Of a stretch of DNA of 64,000 nt, positions 47,000 to 62,580 are shown one piece after another. The position numbers and the translations under genes were made by a program. The notes below the pieces were generated by a model. The model was given only the letters and a program-made list of their open reading frames with translations. It had not been told where the DNA came from and searched no databases. Positions within the stretch are counted from its first letter, which is position 1; each line of letters opens with the position of its first letter. The stretch is from Escherichia coli (GTDB taxonomy: Bacteria; Pseudomonadota; Gammaproteobacteria; Enterobacterales; Enterobacteriaceae): the NCBI RefSeq assembly GCF_003790525.1, contig NZ_CP033635.1; one strand, written 5' to 3'.

Positions 47000-47145
47000 A
47001 TGCCTCTTAAGGTTTTCTTAAGGTTCTTCTGAAAGTAAAAAGCGCACAAAATGTACAAATGACGTTGATTGAGAACGATTTCAGTACGTGATTTTCTTAT
47101 TGTCGGGGGGAGTTTGAAGGGAGTTGTATGTCAAAGTGATGAAGA

Positions 47146-47418
47146 TTAATCTTCATCAAAACCAGAATTAAAGAGGGCGATAACGGCGGCCAGTGCTTCC
47201 TCTTCCTGTGGACCGGTCGCTTCAACTTCAATCTGCCGTCCTTTGGCAGAATCCAACATCAGCAGCGCAATAACGCTGTTGGCTTCAGCCTCGGTGCCTT
47301 CGTCATTACGTAACAGCACTTCAGCGTCAAAACCTTGCATTAATTCAAACAGCTTCATTGCAGGCCGGGCATGCATGCCCAGCTTGTTTGTGATTTCAAC
47401 AGTTTGCTTGACGGTCAT
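47146..47418 (-). CDS. npr: Nitrogen-PTS phosphocarrier protein NPr (90 aa)
   Basis: Full ORF with HPr-like active-site region; recognised as NPr/PtsO. Confidence 0.95.
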
Positions 47419-58889: not shown

Positions 58890-60149
<1,260 letters not shown>

Positions 60150-60196
60150 TTGTCTGAGAGCTGGCAGCCCCGTTCGCGGGGCTACCGCCAGACCAC

Positions 60197-60475
60197 TCAT
60201 TTTTTCGGTTTAGTGTAGCTACGCATCAACTGCGTTCTGTCGATAAACTCATGGGTCTGCGGATCATGGTAGCGAGATGGCCAGATAATCCAGGGGTCAG
60301 TTCCCAGGGCTTTCGCAATAATCATCTCTCCTTTCGGCCAGGGGCGCGATAATGCGTTCGCCAGCGTTGAGGAACTCAAACCATTTCTGCGAGATTCCGC
60401 CGCCATTGACGTTCCCTTCTTGCGCAAACCCGCAATGATGTCAGCGGGATGCCAGTCAATGAAATTACTTTCCAT
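60197..60475 (-). CDS. sfsB: Ner-like DNA-binding regulator SfsB/Nlp (92 aa)
   Basis: Full ORF; recognised as Nlp/SfsB. Confidence 0.92.
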   Translation of the reverse strand: MESNFIDWHPADIIAGLRKKGTSMAAESRRNGLSSSTLANALSRPWPKGEMIIAKALGTDPWIIWPSRYHDPQTHEFIDRTQLMRSYTKPKK

Positions 60476-60703
60476 CTTTCCTCACTCCTTAAGTTAGTCG
60501 CTTTCATTCAGAACACTTCTTCTGTCGAGCATCACTATACTCCTGATGGCCTATTGCTCTAAAAAGTTCCTGTAAAGAGTGTGAATATTCAGAATATATA
60601 AAGATACATACACTGGTTTTTCAGGCGTTATTGCGCTGAATAAGTGTTTTTATGGAACTTATTGGAATCATCCCGCGCACTGCGCGGGATGAGGGGGAGG
60701 GGA

Positions 60704-61675
60704 TTAACGATCGCGTTGAACAGCGATGTGCGCGAGGCCGATGAGTGCTTCTCGCCACGGGGTGTCCGGGAGCACCTGTAACGCTGCGATGGCTTTGTCT
60801 GCTTCTTCCTCGGCACGCTGACGCGTCCATTCAAGAGATCCACAAGCGTTCATTGCTTCCAGAACCGGTTCCAGAAGATGGCGACCGTTACCCTGTTCGA
60901 TGGCGGTACGAATCATCTGTGCCTGTTCTGGTGTGCCATGATGCATTGCATGCAGCAGCGGCAGCGTCGGTTTACCTTCGTTCAGATCGTCGCCGATGTT
61001 TTTACCTAACTGTTCGCCATCGGCATTGTAATCGAGTAAATCGTCGATCAACTGGAAAGCAGTGCCGAGATAGCGCCCATAATCCTGCAGGCCTTTCTCC
61101 TCCTCCGGCGTACAGCCAGCCAGAATCCCGGAACACTGCGCGGCAGCCTCAAACAGACGCGCGGTTTTGCTATAGATAACGCGCATGTAGTTTTCTTCAG
61201 TGATGTCCGGATCGTTAACGTTCATCAGTTGCAGAACTTCACCTTCTGCGATGACGTTTACGGCTTCTGACATGACTTCCAGCACTTTGAGCGAGCCGAG
61301 GCTGGTCATCATCTGGAACGCGCGGGTATAAATAAAATCGCCTACCAGCACGCTGGCGGCATTGCCAAATGCGGCGTTGGCGGTAGCTTTACCCCTGCGC
61401 ATATCTGATTCATCCACAACGTCGTCGTGCAGCAGAGTCGCCGTGTGGATAAACTCGATCAGGGCAGCAATGGTGACATGCGCATTTCCCTCATAGCCAA
61501 CAGCTCGTGCAGCCAGTACAGCAATCATCGGACGAATACGTTTACCGCCGCCGCTGACGATGTAATAGCCTAACTGATTGATCAGTTGGACGTCGGAATT
61601 AAGCTGCTCAAGGATTGCCGCATTAACACCCGCCATATCTTGCGCGGTTAACTCATTGATTTTTTCTAAATTCAT
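60704..61675 (-). CDS. ispB: Octaprenyl diphosphate synthase IspB (323 aa)
   Basis: DDxxD motifs (LHDDVVDESD, DDLLD); recognised as IspB. Confidence 0.96.
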   Translation of the reverse strand: MNLEKINELTAQDMAGVNAAILEQLNSDVQLINQLGYYIVSGGGKRIRPMIAVLAARAVGYEGNAHVTIAALIEFIHTATLLHDDVVDESDMRRGKATANAAFGNAASVLVGDFIYTRAFQMMTSLGSLKVLEVMSEAVNVIAEGEVLQLMNVNDPDITEENYMRVIYSKTARLFEAAAQCSGILAGCTPEEEKGLQDYGRYLGTAFQLIDDLLDYNADGEQLGKNIGDDLNEGKPTLPLLHAMHHGTPEQAQMIRTAIEQGNGRHLLEPVLEAMNACGSLEWTRQRAEEEADKAIAALQVLPDTPWREALIGLAHIAVQRDR

Positions 61676-61897
61676 CGCAAAAGCCGGGCTTTTCGCCCCG
61701 ATTACCTTACTGTGAACAAAGGCAACTTAGGGTTTATGGTTAGGAATATAGGGTGATTGTACTGAAAAAATGGCACAGATAAACGTTACCGTACAAGTTG
61801 TGTTTTTTTTCTTCGTGTATTGACTGTAGCACTTGTCAAAGGCGTGCGTTTTGCGTAATATTCGCGCCCTATTGTGAATATTTATAGCGCACTCTGA

Positions 61898-62523
<626 letters not shown>

Positions 62524-62549
62524 GTTTTTCGCGTCCCGGTAACGGATGA

Positions 62550-62580
62550 AAGCCCCGCAACACGTTGCGGGGCTTTTTAC
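62550..62580 (+). terminator. Rho-independent terminator after rpmA
   Basis: aaagccccgcaacacgttgcggggcttttt hairpin plus T-run. Confidence 0.85.

Follow-up and report, generated by a model that had tools for sequence, protein, structure and literature searches.

What does the palindrome between ispB and sfsB do? In the 64,000-nucleotide stretch of Escherichia coli DNA analysed here, referred to as the window, it encodes a 3'-terminal stem-loop that marks the end of the ispB mRNA. It is an ordinary member of a class of mRNA 3'-end hairpins described before, and its position had been mapped earlier. Judged from orthologous loci, the structure and not the sequence of the hairpin is conserved across Enterobacterales. 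As to how the end is made, we lean towards a protective stem-loop with Rho-dependent termination downstream rather than a weak intrinsic terminator, the two not being mutually exclusive. The genes of the locus, as given by the open reading frames and by the RefSeq annotation of matching genomes, are:

60704-61675, minus strand: ispB coding sequence (octaprenyl diphosphate synthase), whose transcript is ended by the hairpin
60197-60475, minus strand: sfsB
58890-60149, plus strand: murA
from 61910, plus strand: rplU

The palindrome lies in the 228-bp spacer between ispB and sfsB (60476-60703), where it is part of the following arrangement:

60704..60706, minus strand: ispB stop codon TAA
60693..60703, minus strand: C-rich, G-free spacer UCCCCUCCCCC from the ispB stop codon to the hairpin, part of a C>G-skewed stretch
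60668..60692, minus strand: terminator-like hairpin of the ispB mRNA 3' end, 11 bp, -20.3 kcal/mol, with covariation and a homologue in PMC10687069
60692..60682, minus strand: RNA 5' arm of the hairpin, UCAUCCCGCGC
60681..60679, minus strand: hairpin loop AGU, 3 nt
60678..60668, minus strand: RNA 3' arm of the hairpin, GCGCGGGAUGA

In the ispB-sense RNA these elements follow one another as UAA-UCCCCUCCCCC-UCAUCCCGCGC-AGU-GCGCGGGAUGA-UUCCAAUAAG. An earlier note on this DNA had described a perfect palindrome with 10-bp arms; the palindrome exists (atcccgcgcactgcgcgggat at 60670-60690), but its size has to be corrected, as the inverted-repeat arms (60668-60679 and 60681-60692) measure 12 nt each, are 100% complementary with 1 nt between them, and reach 2 nt per side beyond atcccgcgcactgcgcgggat. 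The note had further placed it just past the ispB stop on the transcribed strand and seen no strong U-tract behind it, and both observations hold: the palindrome begins 11 nt after the TAA, the tail reads UUCCAAUAAG, and a simple terminator scan returned 0 sites. Folding, proposed there as a check, likewise came out positive, with z = -5.5 against dinucleotide shuffles for a 101-nt stretch around the palindrome.

The palindrome is more than a chance match. With arms of at least 12 nt and a spacer of at most 8, the window holds 3 perfect palindromes against a mean of 0.01 in random sequences, and with arms of at least 10 nt it holds 7 against 0.59, the expectation being taken from 200 first-order-Markov sequences of 64 kb. 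Five of the other six palindromes with arms of at least 10 nt are classical terminators composed of A-tract, hairpin and T-tract; the ispB palindrome is the only GC-rich one of the seven without flanking A or T runs. The window also contains, at 47137-47158, a perfect AT-rich palindrome with 11-nt arms and zero spacer (TGATGAAGATTAATCTTCATCA), which does not resemble the terminator palindromes and has rather the look of a protein-binding site.

The end of the ispB mRNA has been mapped directly behind the hairpin. In MG1655, where ispB occupies 3333710-3334681 and the hairpin 3334692-3334716, the TRS data (Nat Commun 2023, PMC10687069, Supplementary Data 2-4) contain a plus-strand 3' terminus with a peak at 3334715-3334728 and, depending on the dataset, a dominant position of 3334718, 3334720 or 3334721. 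This terminus is labelled 'Primary' for ispB and listed with the fold (((((((((((...))))))))))) with an energy of -20.2 kcal/mol, at most 2 U in a row and a 41-nt 3' UTR (PMC10687069). Measured from the stem end at 3334716, the published terminus of 3334718-3334721 thus lies 2-5 nt past the stem, which answers the earlier call for 3'-end data and agrees with the U-less stem-loops described by Dar and Sorek (2018, PMC6061677). Transferred to the window, it gives:

60663..60666, minus strand: inferred steady-state ispB mRNA 3' end, 2-5 nt past the stem, aligned from MG1655 3334718, 3334720 and 3334721

With it, the ispB transcript gains a defined end, a 3' UTR of about 40 nt that would close in a protective hairpin. 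The Term-seq tables consulted from Adams 2021 (PMC7815308) have no 3' end at the ispB hairpin, only the murA end at 3335196 (minus strand); low ispB expression is a plausible reason for the missing ispB end. Read densities in the TRS data are 0.057-0.108 over the sfsB coding sequence and 0.474-0.531 over ispB (a ratio of about 12-23%; PMC10687069), so that most ispB transcription does not run on into sfsB. Supplementary Data 4 of the same paper also carries two start sites from Thomason 2015, at MG1655 3334698 and 3334625 (window ~60686 and ~60760, minus strand). One of them falls inside the 5' arm of the hairpin, with no plausible -10 element upstream, and is probably a structured 5' end resisting the exonuclease used in TSS mapping rather than a promoter.

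Within E. coli, 5,425 of 5,426 complete genomes contain the ispB-sfsB spacer (median 1 place per genome); the 37-nt hairpin region occurs in 5,421 of the 5,426, with a median of 2 places. We read the two places as the palindrome matching both strands at one site, and the hairpin hence as single-copy, the coordinates of both places being unchecked. An alignment of eight strains has an invariant core stem and a variable loop (U/C); its changes at the stem base are A-to-G in the 3' arm, so that the sense RNA still pairs there as G.U, where the antisense RNA has A.C mismatches. When six natural variants were folded on both strands, the sense strand was always at least as stable as the antisense strand (-19.3 vs -15.2; -16.0 vs -14.3 kcal/mol), which points to selection on the ispB-sense RNA rather than on symmetric DNA.

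The same emphasis on structure is seen across Enterobacterales. An IspB protein scan of species-representative genomes yielded 80 loci, of which 79, from Escherichia to Photorhabdus, were analysed. All 79 species have a hairpin no weaker than -11.7 kcal/mol whose start lies at most about 60 nt past the ispB stop, and for most of them the distance is 2-27 nt. Examples of the arms are CAUCCCGCGC in Escherichia, UAUCCCGCG with a matching CGCGGGAUA in another Escherichia lineage, CAUCCCGUGC/GCACGGGAUG in Citrobacter, GUCUCCCUGCG in Enterobacter, UUAGCGCGCC in Buttiauxella and Cedecea, and GGGGCC in Pantoea; a spacer like that of the window, TAATCCCCTCC, is kept in Escherichia, Citrobacter and Enterobacter. 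Covariation of the window's 11 pairs was assessed on 30 Enterobacteriaceae, aligned with MAFFT without fitting to the structure: 39 cells are changed on both sides, whereas shuffles give 15.5 +/- 3.4 and none of 500 attains 39; the covariation score is 0.315, as against at most 0.176 with the partners slid by 1-3 columns. The hairpin, whose conservation had been named as a test of its relevance, is thus retained with compensatory changes. Since 3' ends map here as well, the refuting condition set by the earlier note fails in both its parts.

What follows the hairpin differs between genera. Photorhabdus, Hafnia and Edwardsiella carry a canonical U-tract; in Pantoea and Erwinia the tail is rich in U and C, with U-tracts in some Pantoea; some Citrobacter have AUUUUAU; and the U-tract is absent from Escherichia, Enterobacter, Kosakonia, Phytobacter, Buttiauxella and Cedecea. 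The orthologous U-tracts suggest that the ancestral ispB terminator was probably intrinsic. Terminators have been proposed to switch type in evolution through the gain or loss of uridines (PMC6061677), and we take the cross-genus series as an example of the intrinsic-to-Rho 'transition' proposed there. It makes for a clean comparative example, as the orthologous hairpin keeps its stem while the U-tract is present or absent by enterobacterial family. A tie between the loss of the U-tract and an adjacent sfsB was considered and rejected, since Hafnia and Edwardsiella keep their U-tracts with sfsB about 220 nt downstream.

How, then, is the ispB end made? An RNA-stabilising hairpin and a weak terminator, two of the three functions that the earlier note had offered, are both backed by the mapped end and the conserved structure, which do not separate them from each other. 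In E. coli, intrinsic and Rho-dependent transcripts alike end at equally stable stem-loops; the Rho-dependent ends have neither a U-tract nor an A-tract upstream, C mildly outweighs G behind them, and Rho stops transcription downstream, after which PNPase and RNase II trim the RNA to the stem (PMC6061677). The ispB hairpin resembles these ends in its stable GC-rich stem immediately upstream of a precise 3' end, in its tail of only two U, in the UCCCCUCCCCC in place of an A-tract before the stem and in the mild C>G skew around and after it, while its stem energy and loop size, as in that class, do not set it apart from intrinsic terminators. Between the last ~60 nt of ispB and ~100 nt beyond the hairpin, the C/G ratio is 1.6-2.5, and over the ~100 nt downstream it is 1.6-1.9, with G at only 10-13%. 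It is this match that leads us to favour Rho together with a protective stem-loop.

According to this scenario, most polymerases would probably pass the hairpin, the U-tract having been lost in Enterobacteriaceae, and Rho would release them in the C>G-skewed, untranslated ~100-190 nt before or around the sfsB promoter. The tail would then be trimmed back to the stem, where the hairpin presumably stops 3'->5' exonucleases (PNPase, RNase II), thereby setting the mRNA end and making it stable; for a minor share of polymerases the hairpin may itself be the site of termination, in the manner of a weak intrinsic terminator. Several features fit this less well. The strongest C-rich stretch lies upstream of and within the hairpin, whereas Dar and Sorek place rut sites downstream, and the conserved UUCCAnUAAnUUCC tail of ispB is neither a described feature of their class nor explained by a pure exonuclease barrier. 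An end 2-5 nt past the stem, moreover, fits trimming and direct termination alike. This distance does not discriminate: the TRS data put the end of the canonical rpmA terminator ~8 nt past its GC stem and the U-less talB end ~5 nt past its stem (PMC10687069). A text search of the literature for ispB with terminator and for sfsB with Rho returned nothing relevant, and the TERMITe and 3'-UTR-valve papers make no mention of ispB; the portion of the RhoTermPredict file that was covered likewise lacks a relevant entry.

The main alternative, possible but less likely, is that the hairpin is a weak non-canonical intrinsic terminator, at which RNA polymerase is released at the UUCC tail independently of Rho, possibly aided by NusA/NusG or by a pause in the UUCCAnUAAnUUCC motif, so that the observed 3' end would be the release site itself. 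The hairpin has the classical position just past the stop codon, 11 nt after the TAA, and the stem-loop of a canonical intrinsic terminator: 11 bp with 8 G-C pairs, a short loop of 3 nt and a stability of about -20 kcal/mol, as strong as that of canonical ones. The 3' end is sharp and close to the stem, orthologues in Photorhabdus, Hafnia, Edwardsiella and some Pantoea and Citrobacter have real U-tracts, and the tail motif is conserved, as would be expected of a role in termination. Efficient intrinsic release in E. coli, however, needs a weak rU:dA hybrid of ~7-8 nt. Past the ispB stem there are 2 consecutive U followed by CC, in line with the published longest U run of 2; the sequence is UUCCAAUA rather than a run of at least 5 U, there is no upstream A-tract, and a consensus scan (at least 5 T in 8 nt) returned 0 sites. 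A canonical comparator lies only 1.9 kb away in the same window, the rpmA terminator at 62549-62576, which reads AAAGCCCCGC...GCGGGGCTTT. Genome-wide, U-less hairpins characterise the Rho-dependent transcripts of E. coli, although inefficient intrinsic termination backed by Rho is also allowed for (PMC6061677).

In the tail itself, Escherichia, Enterobacter and their relatives have a conserved UUCCAnUAAnUUCC where distant genera have the U-tract:

60648..60667, minus strand: conserved tail motif UUCCAAUAAGUUCCAUAAAA in place of a U-tract, two direct repeats of ~10 nt of UUCCAnUAA

In Escherichia, Enterobacter, Kosakonia, Phytobacter, Buttiauxella and Cedecea the tail takes the form (U)UUCCA(A/G)UAA(G/A)UUCC. 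Directly past the hairpin, UUCCA(A/G)UAA(G/A)UUCCAUAAAA is found (also in loci L010-L044), although the hairpin sequence varies. Candidate roles for the motif are a pause or termination signal replacing the U-tract and a protein site upstream of the sfsB promoter. Hairpin and tail UUCCAnUAAnUUCCAUAAAA might even form one module, a U-tract-free termination or pause signal or a site for an RNA- or DNA-binding factor setting the read-through from ispB into the regulator gene sfsB, which we consider improbable; if true, such a module would be a conserved feature of Enterobacteriaceae matching neither textbook type of terminator.

The third function offered for the palindrome, a protein binding site, is disfavoured, as the arms differ between genera while the pairing stays and the natural variants favour the ispB-sense RNA fold. 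In its specific form, a DNA operator for a dimeric transcription factor such as an sfsB regulator or SfsB itself would find a target in a perfect intergenic palindrome with 12-nt arms ~105 bp upstream of the sfsB promoter. Yet the half-sites are unlike one another (CATCCCGCGC in Escherichia, TCTCCCTGCG in Enterobacter, TTAGCGCGCC in Buttiauxella and GCTTTCCCG in Phytobacter), with pairing kept by compensation, and variants within E. coli, though no longer symmetric as DNA, still pair as G.U in the sense RNA. A hairpin also follows ispB in Serratia, Yersinia and Photorhabdus, whose sfsB lies more than 1 kb off, and an RNA 3' end maps right past it, so that an operator appears very improbable. 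We likewise regard a bidirectional terminator as unlikely: on the plus strand the same stem would be followed by GGGGGAGGGG, and the tables of PMC10687069 contain no opposite-strand 3' end at this site.

Hardly any weight attaches to a REP/BIME-like or other dispersed or mobile repeat lying there by chance: the hairpin shares with REP elements, which serve as protective hairpins at about a quarter of Rho-dependent 3' ends (PMC6061677), the nature of an extragenic GC-rich palindrome at an mRNA 3' end, but it lacks the REP consensus, is single-copy by the both-strands reading given above, and has remained syntenic with ispB across genera, in the same place since before they diverged. Rather than many dispersed copies, genomes contain the 228-nt spacer at a median of 1 place, and the arms have no second copy among the palindromes of the 64-kb window. 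An Rfam search of 60100-61900 at E <= 10 gave four chance-level matches, none overlapping 60640-60710.

Downstream of the hairpin, sfsB has a promoter of its own:

60534..60563, minus strand: sfsB sigma-70 promoter TTTAGA-18-TATAGT, ~105 nt downstream of the hairpin, conserved across Enterobacteriaceae

A constitutive sigma-70 promoter of sfsB with the same hexamers has been reported in the ispB>sfsB spacer (PMC3946193). With its own promoter, sfsB is independent of read-through from ispB, and the two genes are separate transcription units. Upstream of the sfsB -35 element lies a block TCTTTATATATTCTGAATATTCACAC (60585-60612, minus strand) that is invariant in E. coli and whose core TCTGAATAT is conserved across Enterobacteriaceae; it may be a candidate regulator site for sfsB. 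In practical terms, the mapped end could be of use in the engineering of ispB (ubiquinone side-chain synthesis) and in the design of 3'-UTR parts, with little beyond annotation otherwise.

Some observations concern the locus more generally. Among 5,425 E. coli genomes, only 50 match the spacer 60476-60703 at 99% identity or more, whereas 5,287 match it at 90-95%, and the IspB proteins of the window and of Escherichia albertii NBRC 107761 (locus L010) are 100% identical, a pattern that suggests either an uncommon lineage or a region exchanged by recombination. In one E. coli isolate (L003, NZ_CM194533.1), an IS1 insertion at 1703-2400, within the ispB-sfsB spacer, separates the region of the hairpin from that of the sfsB promoter. 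Finally, the convergent genes murA and sfsB share a hairpin at window ~60150-60196, GCAGCCCCGTTCGCGGGGCTACCGC in murA sense, that ends both of them, with published MG1655 3' ends at 3335191-3335196 (minus strand) for murA and 3335229 (plus strand) for sfsB. In neither orientation does a clear U-tract directly follow the stem, a U run in the murA tail coming only ~15 nt on, and this may be another U-less 3'-end hairpin.
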